Assembly (NCBI GenBank): GCA_027604505.1 | Contig: JADIIX010000088.1 | Coordinates: 1-64,000 of the forward strand | DNA from: Gonapodya sp. JEL0774 | Lineage: Eukaryota | Reading direction: 5' to 3' | Length of the DNA stretch: 64,000 nucleotides | Shown: in pieces, positions 31,201 through 48,397 of the stretch | How positions within the stretch are numbered: position 1 is the first letter of the stretch | Layout: every line of letters starts with the position of its first letter | Program-made: the position numbers and the translations under genes | Notes under the pieces: generated by a model | What the model was told of the DNA's origin: nothing | The model's input: the letters and a program-made list of their open reading frames with translations, nothing else | The model's database searches: none

Positions 31201-32530
31201 GTCCGAAAGAGAGTAGGCTTGGTCGAGTATGCCAAGCATCTTTGTTGACATCACGATCGTCGATACGGCCGTGATGTTTGTCGGCAGACGGCGAACAGCG
31301 TAGAGCTGTGATCAGGGGATTGAATTGACGAAGGAATGTGAGATACGATGGATGTGGTGTGGGGTTGAGGGATGTGAGGGCTGATGTGCGGGAAGCGATC
31401 ATGGGGTGACTTACCCACGCGCCTGTGTCGAGTTCTCCATCATTAACGCCGCCATGTACGGCACTACATTGGTTAAGCGCCATTCAGAAGGATTTCGGTT
31501 TTTGCTGGCCCCGAACCCCAAGATCCTCACGGTTTCATTTCTTTGTAATACGAGCACAGGGTCTTGAAATCAATCGTGGCGGAACCTGAATGGGCAGCCA
31601 AATTCGGAGAAAGACCGTCCATATTACCAGAGGCCGTGGGGCTTCGCGACGAGACGGCGAAGAAGAGGTAGGATTGAAATGCGTCGAGTGGGGCGAAGAG
31701 GTGCTGTCGGGTGCGCAGCATGCGAGCGAGGGCCACCTGGGGATTGTAGATATTACGCGGTCAATTCATCGTGTAGATAATGAGCAAGAGAGAAAGTGGG
31801 GATGGAAGGGTGAAGGACCTCACCGAGAATGGCAGCTGGGTCATGACAAGGTCAATAAAGACCTCACCCGGCATGACGAGCAGCACCACGGCAACATCCA
31901 TGCTGGGTATTCGTGAGTGAGCACCCGGAGAGGCTGCTTGTGCCAGAGGTGGTGCGGAAGACCTGGTGCCACCGCCGCTTGCGCTGCGGACTGCCGTGAA
32001 TGTTACCCGTCGAGGTTCGTTGAAGAGAGGTGCCCGGTCGCCGAAGAAGGTACCTGCGCCGAGGAGGGAACCTGCCTTTCTATGGGGTGTTGGAGAGGTT
32101 CAATGGCTGTAATGATTGCATGTACCAAAGAATCGCCTCCACCCGTTTTGTCTTACCCGTCGTGATAGTCACGGTGAACATGGCCTGTGCAAATAATAAA
32201 CACATCTTTTGTAGTGTCACCTACAGAACGGCGAATGCACGAAAATTGGTGGTTTTGTGGATGATGATTGTTCAGTCACTCACCCTTCCGCGCGATTACG
32301 GCTCCAACGGGGTAAGAGACGAGAGAAGAAGCAGATGCAATCTCACTGTGGAAAAGGAATCGCCTGTGTCCAAGCCCTGTCAGCTCAATATTTATCAAAG
32401 TCGCGACTCACCGAAGGAGCGTTCGGGGCAAATATTTAAAGGGTGCAGTCCTGGCAAATGCCGCGCACTTGTATTCTGTTTCTGTAGGAGATGCAATCAT
32501 TGATGGGAGTAGCTCCGGTCCTGCTGGCAT
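28272..32530 (-). CDS. cNMP-binding domain fused to a DUF6909-like (nucleoside phosphorylase/AMP nucleosidase-like) domain; many short exons
   Basis: Spliced reading gives PFKYLP...VIARKGDTTKDVFIICTG...LGAGTFFGDRAPLFNEPRRVTFTAV (CAP/cNMP fold). It continues with DLLDFTTCLCLH, IISSNTHSVIN, IINIDFAFGRQA, VLGKAGGLIGQRGDILIP, GTLLQN...GLEMEGSYF and LYTTARVVLEQIF. Confidence 0.75.
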
Positions 32531-32609
32531 AGTTGTGAGGGGATATTGTGTGCAGCTGTGTGCGAAGACGGCACATGAACCAGTGCAATGCAATCACGCT
32601 GAAACGACG

Positions 32610-35600
32610 ATGCCATTGCCATCAGCGAACACCGATGGTCCCAATGTGGATATCAGGGATTCCGCAGCGCTTGCCCGTCGTGCTCAAACAGTTCTCCGGG
32701 AAGTGTTCTCCTTCCCCGCATTCAGAGGCAGTCAACTGGATACTATCGTCGACGCTTGTCAAGGTATGTCAAACACCCATGTCTCCATTGGTTTCCCCCG
32801 TTTCAAATCTCTATTGCAACTTCCCGCTTTCAATTATCGTGATTTGTCCCCCCTGCACTCAAATCAACTCAAGGAAAGGACACCTTCACCGTGCAAGCCA
32901 CTGGGTCTGGCAAGTCGCTCTGCTACCAGGTTCATATCGGTCACGATTGAGGGCTCTTTTTCTTTTGAATGAGCGATCACTGATTCGCCTTTCATTCTTC
33001 TGTCTCACATGTGTCAGCTACCACCCTTGATCCTTCCCCACACCGTCGCCCTCGTTGTATCCCCTCTAATATCTCTTATGGAAGACCAAATCGCAAAACT
33101 TGACCAGCTTGGCGTACCCGCCTGTATGATTGCGTCAAATCAGTCGGAGTCGGTCAGAAGAGATTCGGAGCTGCGAGCGGTGGAGGGAAAAGCTGCAGTG
33201 GTGTACGTCACGCCAGAGAGAATGTAAGTCTCAAACGTTTAGAGAGTAGTGGGCAGAGTTGTAGTGCTGACAATGCTCAACCGATATACCCCCACCAGCG
33301 CACTGGACGGCTGGTTCCGCCGTTTCGCCGAATCTCTCCGTTGCAATGCGAACATTCGGGGCCGGTGAGTACACGCTCAATCGCACTAGTATTGCACGAT
33401 TCTCCCCGCTCTGTCTCGTTCCCAAAACCCGTGTTCCCAAAATAACTCTCAGGCGCCACACCGTCTCTCTCCTCGCCGTCGACGAAGCTCACTGCGTCTC
33501 TGAATGGGGACACGATTTCCGTCCCCAATACCGCCTCCTCGGCCCCCTTCGCGATACTCTTCCCGATACACACCCTCCAGTCGCCATCATGGCTCTCACA
33601 GCTACCGCCACGCCGCGAGTGCGAGACGAGGTGGTCAAAGAACTGAGACTGAACGGGGAAGTGAGGGTGGGTAGTTTCGATAGAGAAAATCTTTACTACG
33701 AGGTACGGAAGAAGGGTACCGAAAAGGAGCTGATCGATGTGGTGAGGAGGGGCGCGGAGAAGGGTGATGAGGGTGATGGAAAGCAAGGGTGGGAAAGAGG
33801 CGCGACGGTCGTCTATTGTCCAAGTGAGTCGATCACTCTACTGTAGCCTCGGACTTATATATCCCCCGCAAAACCGACCTTCGCCCTTCCTCCCATTCCC
33901 AGCCCGCGATGAAACCGTTGAGATCGCCGCACTCCTCTCCAGCAGTGGCATCCCTTCCCTACCTTACCACGCTGGTCTTCCCTTTCGCGACCGTACCGAA
34001 ACGCAACGTGCATTCGCCTTTTCAAAGTGTAGGGTCGTGGTCGCAACCACGGCGTTTGGAATGGGGATTGATAAAGAAGACGTGAGGCTAGTGGTGCATT
34101 GGGGAGTGGCCAGGGGAGTGGAGCAATATTATCAGCAAACAGGCAGAGGAGGAAGAGATGGTGAGTTAGGACAGTGTAGCTGACGTGTCGGATGTGTTTC
34201 GGGACCCTTTTCACTTTTGTACGACCCACTCCAAGGACTCTTCACCAGGTGTATCCTTTTTTACGACCAGGGAGAGCTCGGCCGGGCCATGGCAGTGGCT
34301 TCTCGAGAATCCCAGCGGGCCAGCACCTTCTTCGCTGATTTTCGCCTCTATGCCACATCCGGCGGTTGCCGCCGGCGGCATCTGCTCCAATACTTTGGAG
34401 AGAAACCTGATTGGTCGGATTGTGGGGGAATGTGCGACTCTTGCGTGGCAGCCGCAGCTGCATCGACGGGATCTGCTAGTGGGGTCACAGCGTCGTCGTT
34501 GCGTCGGGATGTCTCGGCACATGCGTACCTTCTGATTTCTACCGTGAGGGACACTGGGAATCGGTTCGGGATGAGGATGCCCATCGACGTTCTCCGTGGG
34601 AAAGCATCCAAGAGAGTCGAAGATGCCGTACGTGGCCGCGTTGTTCCAGCTGCAGGTAAAGGATCCGGGTTGTCGCAGGAGACGTGGGACTTCCTGTTTG
34701 CGGCGTTACAGAACCAAGGTCTGCTCGAAGCCAAAGCCGTGAACACAATGTCCAAGTTCAGAAATCAGGTGTATCAGGTATCCGCCAAGGGACGATTGTA
34801 CCATGACCATTTCACACGATCTGGCGCTTCCGTTTTGGTCCTGAAAGAGCCGCCACCTGCTACCCCAGTCCTGCCAGCAGGAAGCCCACGGCTGTGGGTG
34901 GACGTGCCCACCTGGTTCATCGAGCAAGAACGTGTCGCAGCGGAAAAGTCTCGTCTGTCGACATCTTCAGACGGGGGACTTCTCGTCCGTGTGACAAAGG
35001 CCATCGCACGCGGGCGCACATCCACAGCAGCATTTAACCTTTCCGCTCAACTCACAGCTGCGGAATTTGAGCTGTTGGCAAAGCTGACGGAAGTGACACG
35101 GGAAATTGCTGAGAGGGAACTCAACGGACTCAACCCGGAATTCGTATTCTCGTCGGTGGTGCTAAGGGGAATCGCAAGGAGGAGACCAGGATCGATTGAG
35201 ACATTCTCAAGGTGCGAGGGTGTGGGACAATATAAGGGCGAAAGGTAAGGTCAATGCACTTGATTGAATGGCGCTTGAAACTCTAACAATAGTTTCTGCT
35301 GGTTTCCAATGGCAGATATGGATCATCATTTGTCCCCGTTATCACACGAGTATCCGAATCATTAAATCTTCCTCTTGACATGAGGCTTCCGGGTGATCCG
35401 GAAGATGAGGTTGACGACGATTCTGATGATGTAACAACAAGGCAACTGCAGATCGAGAATCTTTTTGAGTCAGAAGCGTTTTTGGGCCTTGGTGCCCTTA
35501 CTAAGCAGTACTTCCGCTTATGGTATGACGGTAAAACGATGGAAGGTCGGTGGGTCTGAGTCTGCATCCTGCGATCACGGAACGTTGAGTGTCCAAAATT

Positions 35601-36681
35601 GTGGTCCTCTCCCACTGTAGAAATCGCGAACATGCGCGGTGTGAAAAGTAGCTCCGTCCACGAATCCATTTGCAAGGGAATCGCTTCTTGTGGGGCTCTT
35701 TTCGCACCACACCTAATCGTCTCCCTGTGGGATCGATTCGCAGTCCCCGACAAGAAACGCGATCAGATCGTCCAGGCAATGGAGAATTTGATTAATGATC
35801 CCACAAAAGCGTGGGACGGCGCCAGATTGAGGCCCATAATGGATGAAATTGGGGATTATGAACTAAAAGGAATAACTTACGACGATCTCAAGGTAACCAG
35901 GCTGTGGTGGCTTGCGGATCGGGTGTCCCGTGATAAGGAAGTGACTGGAAAGAGGAAGAGACCCCAAGAGGAGGATGGTCGAGGATTGGAATATCAAGGA
36001 AGTCAATCAGCTAGTCCACCGGCCCTCGATGCCACCGAAGCGAAGAAGCCAAAGCTTCTTCCAGCTTCTTCCTCAGCTGAGAAGAGACCACCGTTAGGCG
36101 GTTCGTGGCAGAATATGATACCTTCGCCGAACGAGCCCATAAAGAATGTACGGTCATCTGCGTCGACAGGCATCCGGGTATCCCTTCCCCCTTCGTCCAC
36201 CCCCAGCTCAGACGACACCGTCCTGAACTTTGAAACAAGGGAACCACCGACCTTTGCCTCAGTATCCGATTTCGTGTTCTCGGTAAAGCCCGCGGCTTGC
36301 GGAAATGACCCGGACATGAAGGAGTATAGAGTGAGCTTGCAGGCGACCATTCAAATCCCCAAAGAAAGTTCAACAGGTGGTACGTTGGATAAAAACACAA
36401 TGGAGACCTTATTATTAAATGCTATGAAGGGCCACCTCGCTGGACAAGACTGGGTCTCCAACACCCAACCTGCATCACCCACTGTTCCAAAATTCGCGAA
36501 CGACCTCCCTCTTCGAATTTGTGATACATTGCGGTCAAGAGGAAGTTGCACCGTGGACGAGTTGACGAAGATACTCAACACAGATGAGGCCGACATTCGC
36601 AGGGAGCTGACAGCACTGCAAGACAACTATGATGTTTGGAGCCAGCTCAATGGAACGTCTACGCATTGGAAACTTTTGTAA
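32610..36681 (+). CDS. RecQ-family ATP-dependent DNA helicase with RQC, HRDC and C-terminal HTH domains
   Basis: ATGSGKSLCYQ, VVSPLISLMEDQ, AVDEAHCVSEWGHDFRP, ALTATAT, VATTAFGMGIDK, QQTGRGGRDG, CRRRHLLQYFGE..C..CDSC. Confidence 0.92.
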
Positions 36682-36727: not shown

Positions 36728-39700
36728 TCATACTGCTACTCCCCGAGGCTTCTTCTTCTCCGGGTCGTATAATGGATGTGTTGCCCCAACTTCCGCTTTT
36801 ACTCTCTTTGCAAATCCATCCAGCTGTCCGACTTCCAATTGCGTGCCCGGCTTTGCGTACTCTACAAGGACTCTTGCGAGACCTATGTGACCGAACAGGG
36901 GAGTCTCCACGCCACTTGTGACCACTCCGACTTTGTAACGGCCGACGAAGACAGGCTGGCCATGTGCAACGCAGTCGTTTGACTTGATTCTCAGCGAGAC
37001 GAGAGTACGTTGCGGGTGTGCACGACGGTTGGCGATTGCTGCGGATCCTATAAACGGGGTTGTTTTTGTCGCTGGGCAAGCGAATCCAATACCGGCCTCG
37101 AATGGATCGGTGGTGTCGTCGAACTCGTAGCCTGCGAAAATAAGACCTGGTGCACGAGTTTAAGTGGCAGACTGTGTAGTTTTGCATTACCGCGCCACCA
37201 CTCACCAGCTTCTACGCGCACCATGTCAAGCGCATCAAGTCCGAGGGGAGCAATCTCAAATTCTTGACCTGCCTCCCACACGGCATCCCATACTGCACAG
37301 GCGTCATTCGGATGTGACCAAACTTCAAATCCGAGCTCTCCCGTATATCCAGTCCGTGTCACAATAACAGGAGTGCCTGTTGGGCTACCAATCCGGCCAA
37401 TTGTCAGCTTAAACCAACCAAGTTCACTGATACTAGGTCTAGTTGGTGGAGTCCAAATGCACTTCTCGAGCGTAGCTTTGGACTTCGGACCCTGAACCGC
37501 CACGTTGTGGAGGTGGTCTGTCGACGACTTGACCCATACCCGATGAAGACCAAGCCGAGCTGCAAGGGTACGAAGCCATTGTCCAACGTAAGGATCTCCA
37601 CAAACAAGCCGGTAGTTTGTAGAGGATAGCCGCGCAATAGTAGAGTCATCCAACAAACAACCCTTTCAGTGAAAACGCGTTGCAGTGTTGCGTAAGTTTG
37701 ACAAGTAGTGGAGACTATTAGTCAACAAAGCTACATACCGTGGGGTAAGTGATTCCAGTATAGGTTACTCCTGCAATAGGCATTTTCCGGACTTCTCGCG
37801 TCACTGCCCTTTCCAGAAGCTCCCCAGCATCTGGAGAGACGCCAGGACAGAAACCTGTCAAGTTGAGCAAGCTGGAAAGGTATGCCGACAGTCTCACCTG
37901 GCCCGAGAATTTCGAATTTCCTGAGAGCTGACAGGTCGCAGATGGTGACCCTTTCTCGGCAAGCTTTGTACTCTTCCAAAGGGCCCCATTTGGTGAAGCA
38001 GGTCGGAAGCCAGTAGCCTTTGTAGGGAGTATAGGAACGTGTCAACTTGGACGTCCTCGGATGGAATCCAGTGTACTTGGTGAGCGCCGGCTGCGCAACC
38101 GGGGTGATTCGTGTGGCGATTGCGGGGGTGAACGTCTCCCCTTTTGAATAAACGCGAACCTGAATCTCCGAAGGGTCCCACCCGTTTGCTGGATCTATGT
38201 CATCGGGGCACGCCGATGAGGCACAGACAAGCTTAGTGAGGGCACGAAACAGCACATAGTCGCCTGGGCGAGACCATGGTTCCTCCAGCCCGATCGCGGT
38301 CGTGGATGAGCTCACAGCGGTGTTGTAGAAAAGGTTGATTGCTGTTATGAAGGATCATTGAGTTAAAAGAATATCTTACAGGTTGCTTCAGCGATGGGTT
38401 TCTCAAACCTTGGTAGGATGGGGCCCGCGGCAAACCAAAAGGAGCTAGAACATTACCGAAGTTGTCGGTGCAGTTCGGATGTCCTTGAGGTTCATAAAGC
38501 AGGTCAAACTTGCCACATCACAACACCTTCAAAGTACAATTTCTCACCGGGATAACCCATGTCTTCGTAGTACTTTGCAGTGCATGCCAATCCAAAGGTG
38601 TCGTGTCGCCCGACGGTATCGCGCACCTTTCAACCCGAACATATCAACAACCATCAATGTCGTTCATACCTACCCAAGTCTGCAATCACTCACCACCTCG
38701 ACCATAGCTTTCATCTCTTCGTTAAAAAACTTATTGAAAAGGCCAGGTCCAGGGTAGGTTGTACCGTTGATCGTTCGTGTGACCGTTGGGTCGAGACCAA
38801 GGAGCTTTGGTACTTCTGATTTTGTGGAGGGCGCATATGCGAGGAAGTCGGAGCATTGTTGGCCGGAAATGTCAACAATCTACAGGCCAAATAAGAAACA
38901 AAGATTATGAGAGACTGCTCTAATCGCCAATGGAGAATATTGAGCCGTCGGACCTGAATGTAGTCACCCTCTTCAACCTCGTAAGCCACTGCTGTGGATT
39001 TCTTGACTCTAATGTCCAGCTTAGGTTTCGCTAGTGGAAGAGGTGGCTCTTTTATCATCTTCTTCCTCGTGACCCCAATCCCTCCAACCTTGCCAATGGC
39101 CTCTGTGTCACGCTCGACGATGACAATAAGGTCAGTAGGGGGGTTCGGACCGAGCCTGTCAGTGAGAGTATCAATACCGTCAGGGACCATTGGTGGAGAT
39201 GGTGATGAGATGAGGAGCGCGAGATCGGAAGACTTGGCCGTGATTGAGACAGCGGAGTGGGCGGCGGACGTTTTGGCGGAAAAGAAATGATGCGCATCAA
39301 GTGTTGCGGCCTCATCAAAGTGGAGCGATTTCAAGGCATCCACAATGGATTTAGCGTCTGCTGCAGAATTGATTGAGTCCGCCGAAGGTGGGGCGAAGCT
39401 TTCGGCTGTAGATGCTGCAGTGGACAAGAGAGCGACAATGGCTTGGGAAGGGCCCCTGGCAATTTTCGGCTGTGTATCTTCAAGAGTGATTGTCACATTC
39501 ACAGGCGCCTCCTTTGGCGCCGCCGGTTTTTTTGGAACTGCAGGCTTTGGAGGAGCTGTGGTGGAAGTTTGAGGAACTGAGGCATCGACCTTCTTGGGAG
39601 CTGCCACCGCCGGGGGTGAGTTCAAAGATTCCTGCGTTGCCTTGGCGATATCAGTGAGGTCACCTAGATCAGGAGTTTGTAGCGAGTCTGCCCCTGCTGA

Positions 39701-40084
39701 TTCGTTGGGGTGAATGGAGCCCACGAGGTCCGAAACCGTATCTGCGTTGTCCTCGGCAGAAAAATAATTGCCACTTCCGTTTGTCGGACCGTTTTCACTG
39801 GAGGACGCATCCGGAATGATGGGAGCAATCGTGACTGCGTCTGGTTTCACGACTGCACGACCCTCGACAATGCCGAATACAACAACTTCGCAAGGCGTCC
39901 GGCCTTCCAAGTCGACAACTTTGAGTCTGTCTCCGGCTCTGATACCGCCGATGAGAACACTAGCACCTCCCAGGACACGGATTTTCGAGCGTTCCGTGAT
40001 CTTGCCCTCAGGTGAAGACGTCTCGGGGAGAGCCAACGAGGTGACGATCGAGGAAACAGGAATTACATCCACGAGAGCGGACAT
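36728..40084 (-). CDS. Trimethylamine N-oxide demethylase (Tdm)-like protein: DUF1989 + aminomethyltransferase (GCV_T) domains, about 7 introns
   Basis: Spliced DUF1989 core: GDYIQ|IVDISGQQCSDF...RHDTFGLACTAKYYEDMGYP|GHPNCTDNF...AINLFYNT...EPWSRPGDYVLFRALTKLVCASSACPDDIDPANGW. GCV_T part: DLSALRKFEILGP, NVAVQGPKS, RTGYTGELGFEV, PLGLDALDMVRVEAG, YDPEKKKPR. Confidence 0.88.
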
Positions 40085-40754: not shown

Positions 40755-43542
40755 TTACACGCCTAGTCCCTCTTCCTCCTTCTTTGCGGGGATGATTTCG
40801 TTTGCCTCCTCTTCCGTCACCTAAACGCGATATACAATAGTAAAACGTTAGATGCGTGACTTAAACGCGGAAAGTCAATTGTTACAAACTCTTACCTGCG
40901 AAACCGGTCCCTTGAACCATTTACGAGCACCCAGAATCCACCATCCACCCGCAAACAGAACGACAAATGCCACGATGAAGGGTGCAAAGTTCTGCACGCG
41001 AAGGATTGGTGTCAAAACTATGGAGAAACTACTCTCCATCAGCAGACGGTCCACTCACCATTGCACCCCAAGTCACAGGGTACACGGAAGGGAAGCAAAA
41101 AATGATCGCAATGAATCCAATCCACAGGACGGCAATGCTGAAAAGAATTACAACAATGTTACGAGGCGGCGCAAGGGCAAGGGCAAGTGCATCGGGTAGC
41201 TACAAACTCACAAGTTGAGGATTCTGGAGAAGGGGCCCAGGTGGAAAGGTCCCTGCTTGAAATCGTTACCAGCGAAGACGAGTTTGAAAAAGATGGGGCA
41301 TCCGTAGGAAATGTACTGTTCAACAGGGCCGATAGTTAATGGTTGCACTTGTTCTGACTTTGTCTCTATCCCACAGTTGGAAAGAAACAACCAAACTTGG
41401 AACGTACCTGTCCGATTGTGCCAATCGAGATTAACGCTGAGAGTGCCTATATGGAATGTAGCACATGAAGCCTGGCAACTGGTATTCTGTGTACCCTCGA
41501 AACATTGGCTACTTACCACGTACGACCCAACCCCAGGAAGTGCAAGAATTGACGCCAATGTTGTGGAAACGATGACTGAAACGCACCACCAGGTTACGAT
41601 GAATCCCCGAATAGGAATACCACGAAAATGACTCACTTGCACGCATTGGAACTTTGGTGGTGGGTTCAATGTGGTGAATCCAGTTGCTGAAGGGGAGGGC
41701 ACCATCTCGCGAGAAGGCGTAGATCATCCGCGAGTTCGAGGTAATGCAACTCATCGTGCAGACTGTAAAGGAAAAGAGAGAAATTAATCTAGTTCATAAA
41801 ATGCTTTAAGGCAGAAACCTACAGAAGATGCACCCGAGGAAGAGCACCTGGAAGAACACGGTGACGTTTGTGCCCAGCGACTCTACAAGCACGATCGATC
41901 GCGATTTCAGATCAATTGTGTAGAATAGAGAATTATAAAGCCAGGTCTCACCGAGCCAGATTACAGTGTAACCCCCAACTGCGACGGCCTCCGGGTCTTG
42001 AATAGAGAACAACATCGAGAGAATGAGCGCCCAGCCAAACATGAATGCTGAACAGACGGCGTAGATAATGCCCCATGGGGCAGCGCGATCAGAGCCGTGG
42101 GTTTCCTCAGACATGTGTGCAGAAGCATCTTAAGCAACGCCTAGTTAGTCCAAGTGTCGTATACCATCCGTGATCTACCACTCACCGTAACCAGAAATGG
42201 TCCACTGAGACAGTAACAAACCCAAGCAAAGAGCATAGAAGTCGGAAAAGCCTGATTCGTTGTTGAACTCAGTGAAAACGAACGAGGCGGATTGCTAAGG
42301 GTGTGACGACCGCGTGAAGATCGCAATTGCGGTACACATTCAATGTTTTGATGTACCACTCACGAAAGATGCAGCTTTTGCGGGAACAACAACGATGAAC
42401 AGGAATGTTGCAATCACGTGCCACACCACGGACGCTGTTGTGAAAAATGCAAGCAATTTGTCGCCCAGACAGTTCAGAGCGCCGCAGAAGATGAGAACTG
42501 CCACGTAAATGAGGTACAGCTGCCAAAGGGAAGGTACCCCTAGAAGAGAATGGTGTTGGAGGACATTCCACCAAACAAGCACTGTGCGACCTACATTCCG
42601 TGGTGAGAGAGCATGTAGTTCCCAAAACTAAAAGTTTGAGGTCCCGAATTAATGTTCATGTAATTGTTCTACAGAGGATTGAGCGGCGACAAACCTGTGG
42701 CAAATGTGTACGCGACCCCCGCGACCAAGCCCACTTCACCGAGCAGGTTGAACCAGCCAGTGATCCATGACGAAAAGGGGACCCAGGATGGGTGGTTTGC
42801 TGTGAGCTTCGCTGACCAGAAGTAAAGAGAACCGGCGGTGGGGTATGTGCTGCAGATCTGGCGGGAGAAATACATATAAGCAATGGTAACCCGTTACAGA
42901 ATGGGAAACATCTCACCTCTGCGAGACTTCCAGCAACTGAAAAAGCATATCAAGTCGGTTAAAATATGGGTGAAATGTCAACTGATCAAAATTGTTTCAA
43001 CTTGCTCGTAAGAACCTATGGTCACGAGAATTTAGTTCAGATGATGAAGGTACGAGGGGAGTCAATACGGAACGTTCAAGGCTCACCATCGCAAAAACCA
43101 CGAGCCAGCCGTATGTCATAATGACTGCTCCTCCATTGAGCAAAGCGTATCCAACCAGAGGCAAGATGCCTGTAGGAATACTAATGATAGAGAAGGAAAT
43201 TCCAAAGGAATGGAAGACTGTGAAGGAGCGAGAAAGCTCCTGTAGGTTGGCAGGGTTCAGTGATAAGGAGTGAAGTGAGGAGTCGTTCGTTTGATATCAT
43301 GATTTCTTAACAGCGCTGTGGCTGTTTGTCCGCCTCACCTGGCGGTATCTTAAAGGTGAACGTCGAAAAATGTTACTTCATGAAGAAACGCATTGTAAGC
43401 AATTGCACATGCTTACCCAAGCTTAGCGAGTTTGATCTCATCTTCCGTGCTGTCAAGTGAGTCGATGGTGTTCAGCAACCGGTTCCTCTTTGACGGGTTA
43501 TAAGACCACAAGCGATGCGACGTACAGAGGGGGGGCTGCCAT
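40755..43542 (-). CDS. APC-superfamily amino acid/amine permease (ACT family; Uga4/Hnm1-like), many exons
   Basis: MAAPPLTEDEIKLAKLGYRQELSRSFTVFHSFGISFS, SLAEICSTYPTAGSLYFWS, SWITGWFNLLG, HMSEETHG..RAAPWGI, SNSRMIYAFSRDGALP, GPFHLG. Confidence 0.92.
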
Positions 43543-44059: not shown

Positions 44060-46276
44060 ATGGCCACTCTCGATTACCAATTAATTGAGAGCTCTGAAAC
44101 TAATCCGTTGGACTTCATCACCATCGGCGGAGGGTGAGTTGGTGATCAACAGGATCGCCTGTCGAAGTCGGTACCTATTGAAAACATCTGGACCGAAACT
44201 ACCTGGACATTCTCCGGAGATTTGCAAAAATGGACTCTTCTGAATGGGTTGGCTTACTGGAATCGCGAAACCAACAGCCCATCATCAATCGTCGCTCTCC
44301 GCAACGCCTTGAAGTCCAACCTCACACGAATTGCCTCATTCGAAAGAGATGACGACACGGGGGGATTGTGGTACAAGCACACAGCCAAGTGGGTACTGCG
44401 TGTCGGCAGGATTGACAACCGTAAGGCGCACGGCGCAAAACCGTCAATGAATTGGTCTCCATCTTCCAGCTACGCCTCCCTTCAGGTCACAACAACTGAC
44501 TGGACACTTCATGGGTGAGTACAAGAAGATATTTTCCGATGGGTGACGTTGTCAGCTGTCACAATACAGTCAGGGGGGCTTTTGCGTGTTTGTTGGATCA
44601 ATGTCGGACTACCCATGGGTTACAATGAAAGATTTTTGTGACTACCACAGTGCTCACTAACCTTATTTTTTAGTGTGCCTATCCGCGATGGGGAGCCCGG
44701 ACGTCGTGCTTCACGCGATTCGATCATGCAGTGGTGTAGGGTGAGGCCACAGCAAAGTACAGATCACTTGTCTCCCATCTCAAACAACTTTTACTCTCAC
44801 AGGACTACATCAACAAGTTTAAACTCGCCCCTTACATGTATTTTGCGGTCAAAGTCGTCAAGGCAGAGCCCGTCCGGGTGTCATCGTGGCAGGACTCGTT
44901 GTGGAGAGTGACCGTCGCAAAGGTCGCGAATCCTGCCGCTCGGACGTGGGAGACGGTGCCAGGCAGTGAAAAAATTGTGTACACCCGCTCGGTACTTGTT
45001 TGCACCGGACTCGAACAGCTTCCCAAGAAAATCAAGGTGATATGAACTCTGTGTTCTTTCCATGGGGCGGGTCCACTAAAGTCACGAGTTGCCCATCTGT
45101 CATGACCGGTAGATTCCTGGAGAGGAAACCGCCACATTCCCTATTGTTCACAACCTCGTAATTCGAAGTGAGAAGGATTTCCCTTCCGACAGTAAAGGTG
45201 AGTTCCCATATCCGAACGCTTTTGCAATATCAGCTCCTGAACTTGCGGACTGAAATCAATACAGAGATTGTTGTGATCGGAGCCGGCCCTTCCTCCATGG
45301 ATATTGCTCAACTCGCCGCTGTGAAGACCAAAATCCCCACCATTTACCTCGCCCACAGACGCCAACATCTAGGACTTCCAGACCTGTGGTGGCCGTGGGC
45401 CTGGAAATTGGGCATTACGGAAATATCTATCACTCACTTCCTGTATGGCACCTTGGCCCTCCCATCTTGGTTTGTTGATCCTTTGATCCGGACATGGAGC
45501 TCTCTTTGGGCGTGGTGGAACAAAGTCCCAGAATGGGCCCCCGCACCTGACGTGAGTAACTAAGCTTGTACGGATGTACCAGATCTGTGCGAGGAGCGTA
45601 TTCTTATAACTTGCTTCGATTCCTGGTACTGGCTATGGTACGCTCCCACAGCACAAATTGTGGGTACTCTATTTTGCCGTTTATTCCTTTGTCCCTAAAC
45701 TAAATTTTGGTATTTAACTGGTCTTTAGCTCATACGATGTCTCGTATGCTCTCCGAAGTGAATGCCTTCCTGCTTATCACCAAAAGCGCCTCAAAATCAT
45801 CATTGCCGAACCCACCAAGATCGAGAAAGACACCCTACATTTTTCAAACGGCGTCGTATCGAAGCCGCAGATGGTTGTCGAGGCAACGGGTTGGAACCTC
45901 GACATGTCCTGGATACCTGTGCGGAGCTCTTACCAATTTGCTGATCTTCAACCACGTCTCTTTGGACGCTTCATTGATGTTGACTACCCTGGCCTGTACT
46001 GGGTCTCCATCGCGAACGGTTTCATGTGCGCAAACCACAACGCGGACATGGTAACGTGAGTGCCCTTACTACATTTCCTGTACGATTACCTGTATTTCTC
46101 ACGTCTGCTCACCGTTTAGTCAATGTATAACACAAATTCTCAACGGCAAGTGGAAGCAACCAACAATGGCCACAATGGAGAAGCAAATCAAGGAAGTCGT
46201 TCTCCCTACAATCTTTGTACCGGGCAGGGCTCTGGCCGAGTTGAGAGCTTGCGGATTCCAGGTTGTTCAAGGTTAA
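44060..46276 (+). CDS. Divergent class B flavin-containing monooxygenase (FMO-like), multi-exon
   Basis: FITIGGG|PSS FAD motif, FERDDDTGGLW, RSVLVCTG, IVVIGAGPSSMDIA NADPH motif, VVEATGW, YPGLYWV. The 3' end is approximate. Confidence 0.8.
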
Positions 46277-46456: not shown

Positions 46457-48397
46457 TCATCGCCAATCAACTATATGCACTCTAGACTTCTCTCCTAGTG
46501 GTACTTTGATCTCCTCAAGTGATCTGCTCATACTTTCCGTGATAAATATTATGCCTTTGTTGAGGTATTCGTGGTGGTTGGGCTCAAGGAAAGGAACCAA
46601 CTGCAGAGAGACTGTCAGATGGGAGTACCCAAAGGATCACAGTGGGTGAAAGCTTACATAGTTGTAGTTTACCATGACTCCAAAAGATTCGCGAACCCCT
46701 CGTTCTGGCGTACGTGGGAGGTTTTCTTAGAACGTGTGACATGAGATTCGGCAATGTGGTGATCAACTCACTGGATTTGTTACCCATCCAGTTGATCCGA
46801 TGTAAGCACGAGCCGTTTCGCAGGTGAAAGTTTGCTACGGGATCAATCGCATACGCTTGAGTCCCTTTCCTCTCAATGAGAAGATATCTGGAGTGCACGA
46901 AGACGATATGAGGCATACCCACAACGGGCGGTGCCAGTGGACCAACTAGACCTAGTCTCACCTGGCACACCAACGAGTCAGAGGAATGCGCACCTCTTCC
47001 GCAAACGATTCGTCTTCTATCCAAGTCTCCGGTCCGAGAATCCGGGACAATTGCGCATCTGTTAGACGATATTCTGGTTCCACAGCAGACCCCGCCACCT
47101 CTCCGGCAGTCGCTTTGCTCTCGAACCACGATCGAAAACCAGGGATCGGGGACAGTGTGCAGAATGTGGTAATGCGGTAGTTGGAGAAGAGGTGGGGCAC
47201 ACAGCGCTTGAGAAGCATATGCCCCATATCGATTCCAGTGAGACCAGCATGTGGGGAGTTGATGGAGTAGAATATCGCGGTTGATGGATTGGTGGGGTAG
47301 ACTGGGTTTGCGTCTGTTACGATTGCCTTTGAAGGTGAGAACCTGAGAACTCAATCGTTTGAGGAGTGGCAGAATCAACTCTATGACGGTTACCTGCACG
47401 TCGCCTTTGACCTCCTCAAAGAATCCAATTTCCACAAATGCGACCACATCTCCCCGCATTCCATCGTGGAAGAAGCCCAGCACTATCCTTCCATCGCCGA
47501 GACCCCCCACCCTCTGCTTCAGGTCGCGCCAAGTCTGAATCGGATGCACCGCTTCATGTTCCATGACCCGTTCGAGGACACTTGCTGGACTATCCCATGA
47601 AATCGGTTCGAAGCGAAGCGAACTGAGACTAAATATTGGAACTAGGTGACGGCGGAGTGAGTCTGACAGGCTGCGCAGGGATTGTGCTGTGGCGGGTTGA
47701 GTCGAAGAGGTTTTCTTTTGTTGCTTCTGTGATATCGAGAATCATGATGCACCTATCATGATTTGGTCATCAAAATACTCGTGAACACAGAAGCAACTCA
47801 CGACCGCGACACCTCTGACGTCGACCAAGAACCCCACGCCTCCTTCAGCAATTGTCATCGCATGCCAAACTTTTTCGTAGCGCACATCAGAATAGGGTGA
47901 GAAGAACGCAGCGATTGTGGCAGGAGACGACGGGTCGCCGTGTGGGACGGAATGGGGTTCCGAAGGCCGAGACACTGACGTCGGAAGTTACCAAGTGAAC
48001 AAGAAAGCAATTGGCGTGAGCATTGTTGAAAGCACAAGCCTTGTTTGTCAAGAATCTCGCCAATGTGCCAGAAGAGAGTTTCAACAAATAACTCACTGTA
48101 TGCCTCCGCGACATGTATGATGAGCGCCGCCTTGTCGTCCTGCGACAGTTTCTCGTACAAGTCCAACATCCGCGCCACCTCTTCAGCCGGCGCTATCGGA
48201 GCGCCATTTCCTGGAGAAATGAGCCGCTCGAGTTGATCTTGAGCGGCTTTCATGGCGGGGATTCCGGGTGATAAGTCGGTGGGAGACGTGGAGCGGTGTC
48301 GTTTCGCTGTCCTGTCCACTGATTCAAAAAGTCCAAATCAAAGAGCAAATGAAAATGCCATCGAGATTGAACCCCATAGCCCGCGAGTTATGAACAT
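46457..48397 (-). CDS. Malonyl-CoA decarboxylase, multi-exon
   Basis: MEHEAVHPIQTWRDLKQRVG, FCTLSPIPGFRSW, DPVANFHLRNG, INWMGNKS|KRGVRESFGVMVNYNY. The start is uncertain. Confidence 0.9.

Follow-up and report, generated by a model that had tools for sequence, protein, structure and literature searches.

A Tdm-type gene in the fungus Gonapodya, with a predicted TMAO demethylase activity and a likely bacterial origin

A gene on contig JADIIX010000088.1 of Gonapodya sp. JEL0774 (GCA_027604505.1) raises the question of whether a fungus carries a working copy of the bacterial TMAO demethylase Tdm, and how such a copy could have been acquired. In the literature reached, the Tdm family is characterised in bacteria alone, and tdm is regarded as a gene with which bacteria turn over TMAO. 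The window analysed comprised positions 1 to 64,000 of the forward strand of the contig, and a preliminary description of the gene had proposed a functional enzyme that was taken up from bacteria and domesticated with introns. Sequence comparisons suggested that the product probably acts as a zinc-dependent TMAO demethylase and that its gene is likely to have come from a bacterium in a single transfer, ahead of the split between Gonapodya and Hyaloraphidium.

The gene (Table 1) is real, intact, fungal, and interrupted by spliceosomal introns. About seven GT-AG introns had been proposed, and exactly seven GT...AG introns were found. None of their lengths, which range from 59 to 76 nt, is divisible by three (7/7); thus, the protein cannot be read from the DNA unless the introns are removed. 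The spliced frame of eight exons encodes 960 aa with no internal stops. The database protein P0001, labelled Gonapodya sp. JEL0774, is identical to the spliced model, and since this entry, too, is a predicted gene model, it counts as agreement and not as proof of splicing. In pairwise alignments with each of the three bacterial Tdm-type proteins tried, all seven junctions fell within ungapped blocks. The DUF1989 (PF09347, aa 360–528, E 4e-41), GCV_T (PF01571, aa 584–844, E 8e-56), and GCV_T_C (PF08669, aa 868–949) domains all scored above the Pfam cut-offs, in line with the DUF1989 + GCV_T protein described originally. The GC3 of the Tdm exons (0.43–0.65) overlaps that of five native exons (0.49–0.62), and the gene is flanked by eukaryotic, intron-rich genes, among them a permease with introns of similar size.

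Table 1. Positions of the Tdm-type gene, its parts, and the neighbouring genes in the window.
Feature	Position	Strand	Remarks
Tdm-type TMAO demethylase gene (predicted activity)	36728..40084	-	8 exons, 960 aa
Exon 1, aa 1-377	38954..40084	-	N-terminal DUF1989-like domain + insert, linker, start of catalytic domain
Ala/Pro/Ser-rich insert, ~100 aa, aa ~92-195, within N-terminal domain	39500..39811	-	
Intron 1, 74 nt, GT-AG	38880..38953	-	
Exon 2, aa 378-439	38694..38879	-	D388 = Paracoccus D220 / Methylocella D198
Intron 2, 67 nt, GT-AG	38627..38693	-	
Exon 3	38548..38626	-	F450, Zn ligand C454 (= C285/C263), Y464
Intron 3, 64 nt, GT-AG	38484..38547	-	
Exon 4	38409..38483	-	H467 (= Methylocella H276), Zn ligand C470 (= C301/C279), Y489 (= Paracoccus W321)
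Intron 4, 67 nt, GT-AG	38342..38408	-	
Exon 5	37898..38341	-	Y496 (= F327), W513, Zn ligand C535 (= C365/C343), D537 (= D367), D538; start of GcvT-like domain
Intron 5, 67 nt, GT-AG	37831..37897	-	
Exon 6	37739..37830	-	R650 (= folate-site R480)
Intron 6, 76 nt, GT-AG	37663..37738	-	
Exon 7	37206..37662	-	F753 (= F582), one-residue insertion
Intron 7, 59 nt, GT-AG	37147..37205	-	
Exon 8	36728..37146	-	F843 (= F672), K952 (= K782), GCV_T_C barrel, stop
Fungal-type APC amino acid/amine permease, intron-rich (P0301)	40758..43441	-	5' end uncertain
Divergent FMO-like flavoprotein gene (P0300)	44060..46276	+	

The assignment of the protein to the Tdm type was supported by its predicted fold and by its sites. 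The best PDB match was the TDM of Paracoccus sp. DMF (9Q59, E 2e-200), collinear over aa 343–957, and the second was GcvT (E 3e-40). The Gonapodya protein shares the three-domain layout of the Paracoccus enzyme (9Q59/9Q5A/9Q5L), with a collinear core and folate domain. According to the accessible text of PMC13619132, Zn is bound in the Paracoccus enzyme by C285, C301, and C365, the pocket contains D220, F327, and D367, and the residues R480, F582, F672, and K782 lie at the folate site. Nine of these ten residues are identical in Gonapodya, the exception being F327, which is replaced by Tyr, the majority state at this position in bacteria (175/193 rows). The three-cysteine Zn site is kept as C454, C470, and C535, the pocket is represented by D388, Y496, and D537, and the folate-site counterparts (R650, F753, F843, and K952) are all present. 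The apparently intact metal and substrate site reported earlier was thus recovered in the alignment, with Tyr at the F327 position. The plasmid-borne protein of P. aminovorans, close to Paracoccus TDM, is 50% identical to the Gonapodya protein. The latter differs from Paracoccus TDM in its seven spliceosomal introns, in an insert of ~100 aa in the N-terminal domain, in Tyr at both F327 and W321, and in its location outside a tmm/dmm operon; its activity is a prediction.

The Tdm of Methylocella silvestris BL2, mapped through the Paracoccus numbering (+22), shares with Gonapodya the equivalents of C263, C279, C343, H276, D198, and D346, as given in the accessible part of PMC12560246; the first five of these had been named correctly in the preliminary description. 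At the position of A344, Gonapodya has Pro, which the same source lists as a common variant. The preliminary description had spoken of a Zn/Fe enzyme; the zinc stands, and the iron site is disputed, since Paracoccus TDM contained only Zn in cryo-EM and ICP-MS (PMC13619132, accessible text). The residue spacings reported previously, counted from C454, were also exact (D388 at −66, F450 at −4, Y464 at +10, H467 at +13, C470 at +16, W513 at +59, and C535 at +81). Three further Methylocella residues given in the preliminary description, F259, Y273, and W321, correspond to columns with F in 193/193, Y in 193/193, and W in 192/193 bacterial rows. The C-terminal domain of the Gonapodya protein matched GcvT 1YX2 (Z 47, rmsd 1.5, 356 aligned). 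However, GcvT, DmdA, dimethylglycine oxidase/dehydrogenase, and sarcosine oxidase alpha are without the DUF1989 zinc domain, and the scores of these families (127–204 bits) were all below the respective cut-offs. A fold search with the full Gonapodya model did not list 9Q59, which may not be included in the fold library.

Tdm possesses an additional N-terminal DUF1989-like domain without Zn cysteines, and its oligomeric assembly is based on a core dimer, with a hexamer or 2+2 half-subunits. This third domain was missed in the two-domain architecture proposed earlier. Residues 1–340 of the Gonapodya protein correspond to it, broken by a low-complexity insert: aa ~23–85 and ~200–330 align with the bacterial domain and flank the Ala/Pro/Ser-rich stretch. 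The AlphaFold2 model of the whole protein had a pLDDT of 82 and a pTM of 0.86, with values below 50 at aa 95–115, 117–146, and 160–185, so that the insert is largely of low pLDDT. When aa 1–332 were modelled alone, 3ORU, a structure of the DUF1989 type, was the top match (Z 10.8, rmsd 3.4, 157 aligned); it also ranked first in Foldseek at an E value of 0.29 that is not significant. Given the two-piece alignment and the match to 3ORU, the N-terminal domain is predicted to be present and to refold around the insert. Gonapodya sp. and G. prolifera share 63% identity in this stretch, which is missing from all five bacterial rows displayed. According to the accessible text of PMC13619132, Paracoccus TDM aggregates without its N-terminal domain, which is needed for solubility.

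The family assignment was compared with the NCBIfam equivalog model NF053776, the cut-off of which is 1100 bits for the whole protein. The proteins of Gonapodya sp. (982 bits), G. prolifera (1002), and Hyaloraphidium (1042) all scored below it. NF053776, the family of the Methylocella enzyme, was by far the best family for the Gonapodya protein, the next one reaching 204 bits, and non-Tdm paralogues from two bacterial genomes scored at most 270 bits. Bacterial cores deprived of the N-terminal domain passed the cut-off in five of eight cases (1066–1179 bits), which indicates that the fungal shortfall reflects divergence of the core and not the missing score of the N-terminal domain. The Gonapodya protein was therefore classed as a Tdm variant that lies outside the equivalog. 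This divergence is visible at near-invariant columns, of which Gonapodya keeps 153/176 and Hyaloraphidium 167/176, against a bacterial median of 175. The Trp at Paracoccus position 321, found in 260/263 rows, is Tyr in both Gonapodya proteins (Y489 in Gonapodya sp.) and is retained in Hyaloraphidium. The Cys/Asp/His set was also kept in 11 divergent representatives, 10 of which scored below the cut-off; thus, the Zn and acid residues indicate the chemistry and do not fix the substrate.

A search with exon 5 gave 7402 matches; among the best 120, the top three were Gonapodya sp., G. prolifera KXS18042.1, and Hyaloraphidium curvatum KAI9021162.1, and the others carried bacterial names or none. 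Gonapodya and Hyaloraphidium belong to different classes of Monoblepharomycota. The gene is thus not restricted to Gonapodya sp. JEL0774; homologues exist in G. prolifera and H. curvatum, and neither was found to be characterised. In a search of 50% representatives, the only close match was the G. prolifera protein, and the 10 subsequent matches inspected were either bacterial by name or nameless. Of 448 metagenome matches, the top 80 were 50–59% identical in their best segments, and no closer or intron-split relative stood out among them.

The phylogenetic analysis was carried out in IQ-TREE (LG+C20) with 45 rows and 609 columns. The rows were chosen from 207 (34 by hand and 11 by a 72% identity filter), and proteins shorter than 690 aa among the first 120 matches were excluded. 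The three fungal proteins formed one clade (99/96) nested in a clade of 35 rows (98/97), which contains the P. aminovorans Tdm, encoded beside tmm and dmm genes. All 15 full-length bacterial rows scored in the 35-row clade passed the NF053776 cut-off, compared with none of the 10 rows outside it. The Gonapodya branch was long (0.61). The position inside the Tdm clade is that of the best tree; an alternative position outside the Tdm core, together with the divergent rows, was not rejected by the AU test (p 0.129). The one-residue insertion in exon 7 was common to the three fungal proteins and to 20/260 bacterial rows. In addition, the fungal proteins had seven rare residues in common, whereas 204 bacterial controls had a maximum of six and a median of zero. 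The nested fungal clade, the common insertion and rare residues, and the eukaryotic, intron-rich flanks fit one old transfer. It is likely, judging from these sequence data, that a single ancient transfer from a bacterium preceded the split between the Gonapodya and Hyaloraphidium lineages. Two parts of the original proposal, bacterial acquisition and domestication with introns, were supported; its third part, a functional enzyme, stays a prediction in view of the score below the NF053776 cut-off, the long branch, and the retention of these site residues in more divergent bacterial homologues.

The data pinpointed no donor. In a quick tree, the fungi grouped with Carbonactinospora, an actinobacterial MAG, and two alphaproteobacterial MAGs (95); this grouping was not retained in the IQ-TREE LG+C20 tree. 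A grouping of the fungi with three insertion-bearing rows was not found, nor was it rejected by the AU test (p 0.42). In FastTree, the sisters of the fungal clade had a support of 0.46 (207 rows) and 0.17 (263 rows).

Other histories of the gene were weighed against a single transfer. Two separate transfers, into Gonapodya and into Hyaloraphidium, would be in keeping with the bacterial top BLAST scores of the Hyaloraphidium protein and with the AU test, in which the grouping of this protein with two bacterial rows was not rejected (p 0.125). However, the fungal clade was recovered with high support not only in IQ-TREE but also in FastTree (0.998 with 207 rows and 0.991 with 263 rows), and the insertion and the rare residues are common to the fungal proteins, which makes independent acquisitions improbable. 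We regard an old eukaryotic or mitochondrial inheritance, with losses in most lineages and no transfer, as very unlikely. The Gonapodya protein is 50–59% identical to bacterial cores, the fungal clade is nested among bacteria, the only eukaryote-named matches among those listed come from one fungal phylum, and the DUF1989 + GcvT atlas clusters shown were 100% bacterial among the recorded members; the survey of eukaryotes was shallow (the best 120 of 7402 matches, mostly nameless), and further copies in eukaryotes could have gone unseen. That the gene is a bacterial contaminant in the assembly, or a pseudogene in decay, is largely refuted and hardly credible: all seven introns break the frame if retained, the flanking genes are eukaryotic, and orthologues occur in two other fungal genomes. 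Moreover, the two Gonapodya proteins share 91% identity in the core, compared with 76% for the permease and 64–75% for the FMO-like neighbour, and this excess over both neighbouring genes suggests that a working enzyme is under selection.

A different doubt concerns the substrate. With the origin and the chemistry unchanged, the Gonapodya enzyme might now act on a different tertiary amine N-oxide or N-methyl compound, perhaps one that the FMO-like protein produces. The long branch, the 23 changes at near-invariant columns, the W321-to-Y and G320-to-S replacements beside the pocket strand, and the score below the NF053776 cut-off would all be compatible with such a shift, as would the FMO-like neighbour, which is far from Tmm (30.6 bits against a cut-off of 675) yet adjacent in both Gonapodya species. 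On the other hand, every residue for which contact with TMAO, DMA, or Zn has been reported is either kept or replaced by the variant common in bacteria, and Hyaloraphidium retains the Trp together with its 167/176 columns. A change of substrate therefore seems unlikely, and by analogy with the bacterial enzymes, the Gonapodya protein would rather be expected to perform TMAO demethylation.

By comparison with Paracoccus TDM, TMAO would bind through its oxygen to a Zn that has C454, C470, and C535 as ligands; D388, Y496, and D537 would belong to the pocket, and O2-independent cleavage would yield dimethylamine and formaldehyde. The formaldehyde may then be transferred to tetrahydrofolate at the GcvT-like domain (R650, F753, F843, and K952), giving methylene-THF, as suggested by homology. 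The use of the folate site is disputed even for bacterial Tdm, the Methylocella site being called vestigial in the accessible part of PMC12560246. The Km of bacterial Tdm is 1.3–3.9 mM (PMC13619132, accessible text). For the fungus, the TMAO of decomposing plant litter would probably serve as a source of one-carbon units and perhaps of nitrogen. Such a source of substrate is plausible, since several plants contain TMAO (PMC8133759, in the part available) and G. prolifera is counted among the litter saprotrophs (PMC11291939, in the part available).

As far as searched, a fungal Tdm is new. No report of one was found in the literature, most subscription papers lying outside the search, so that absence from print is not proven; in PMC13345962, three of the four supplements held no match. 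The novelty is limited, since Gonapodya was known before to carry bacterial xenologs with introns and the enzyme probably uses established chemistry. The accessible part of PMC11291939, a study of such xenologs in early-diverging fungi, describes G. prolifera as prone to intron-rich examples (26 in 22 trees); in its two supplementary files, the accession of the G. prolifera Tdm and DUF1989 were absent, and the G. prolifera accession prefix occurred 144 times. If the enzyme has been kept working across two classes, O2-independent TMAO cleavage would extend to eukaryotic decomposers. A fungal Tdm would also provide a concrete gene for the use of methylated amines in fungi. Its presence in yeasts is not implied; the di- and trimethylamine demethylases of budding yeasts were still unidentified in 2017 (PMC5816127, in the part available). 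The natural Trp-to-Tyr replacement and the large insert would be useful probes of the mechanism of the enzyme.

Both the permease gene and the FMO-like gene lie upstream of the Tdm gene. The FMO-like neighbour was not recognisable as Tmm, given its score against the Tmm model and the absence of the FMO fingerprint. When the FMO-like protein was searched in 166 bacterial tdm loci, one weak match was obtained, compared with 50 strong matches for a true Tmm query. Co-transfer of the permease or the FMO-like gene with tdm was rejected because the permease matches fungal proteins and neither gene has a close relative in the 166 bacterial loci. In G. prolifera, the accession of the FMO-like orthologue (KXS18043.1) directly follows that of the Tdm orthologue, and the contigs of the two are equal in length. 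The best match of the permease is on a different scaffold, which weakens the case for a conserved three-gene cluster. It is conceivable, though quite unlikely, that monoblepharid Tdm pre-dates the class split and that Gonapodya rebuilt a tmm-tdm-permease module from unrelated parts. In such a module, the divergent FMO would N-oxygenate trimethylamine, the APC permease would bring in trimethylamine or its oxide, and Tdm would carry out the demethylation. This would represent a eukaryotic methylated-amine gene cluster, with the first named fungal gene for the TMAO step. The adjacency of the Tdm and FMO-like genes in two congeners can be plain synteny, and our low estimate for a rebuilt module reflects this. 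The arrangement of the permease and FMO-like genes recalls the bacterial tmm-tdm-permease order of P. aminovorans.

The FMO-like neighbour of the Tdm-type gene encodes a protein in which the FxGxxxHxxxY/F fingerprint is absent. When a single exon served as the query, 2 of 176 candidates proved to be matches, namely the proteins of the two Gonapodya species, and the look-alikes in the atlas were bacterial FMO clusters. Either a second xenolog or a native gene that evolves fast could account for it. The APC permease gene contains approximately 14 or more introns. Judged against the G. prolifera protein, its database model appears to have 5' exons missed or mis-spliced.

Genes and other features around and within the Tdm-type gene
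Feature	Position	Strand	Characteristics
RecQ-type helicase	~32400-35250	+	domains DEAD, RecQ_Zn, RQC, HRDC
Long frame after the RecQ-type helicase	35560-36681	+	weak helix-turn-helix match at the C-terminal end
Insert in the Tdm N-terminal domain	39500-39811	-	
Fungal GABA/choline-type APC permease	40758-43441	-	directly upstream of the Tdm gene, same strand
Divergent FMO-like gene	44060-46276	+	both dinucleotide-binding motifs present
Malonyl-CoA decarboxylase gene	~46584-48340	-	PF05292, E 1e-27; beyond the FMO-like gene

On its other side, the Tdm gene lies tail to tail with the long frame, the end of which is located approximately 46 bp from the Tdm stop.

In the annotated Tdm homologue of Hyaloraphidium curvatum (P0003), most of the N-terminal domain is missing. 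Since the last strand of this domain seems to be kept, the gene model is probably truncated, and a real loss is less likely. Three blocks of the insert within the same domain of the Gonapodya sp. JEL0774 protein are conserved in G. prolifera; one of them is proline/lysine-rich and presumably resembles an SH3-binding motif.

Tdm-type genes were also found in 139 plasmid records of the plasmid collection, where they are mostly annotated just as DUF1989 or aminomethyltransferase proteins; Rhizobium accounts for 95 of these records and Acinetobacter for 20.
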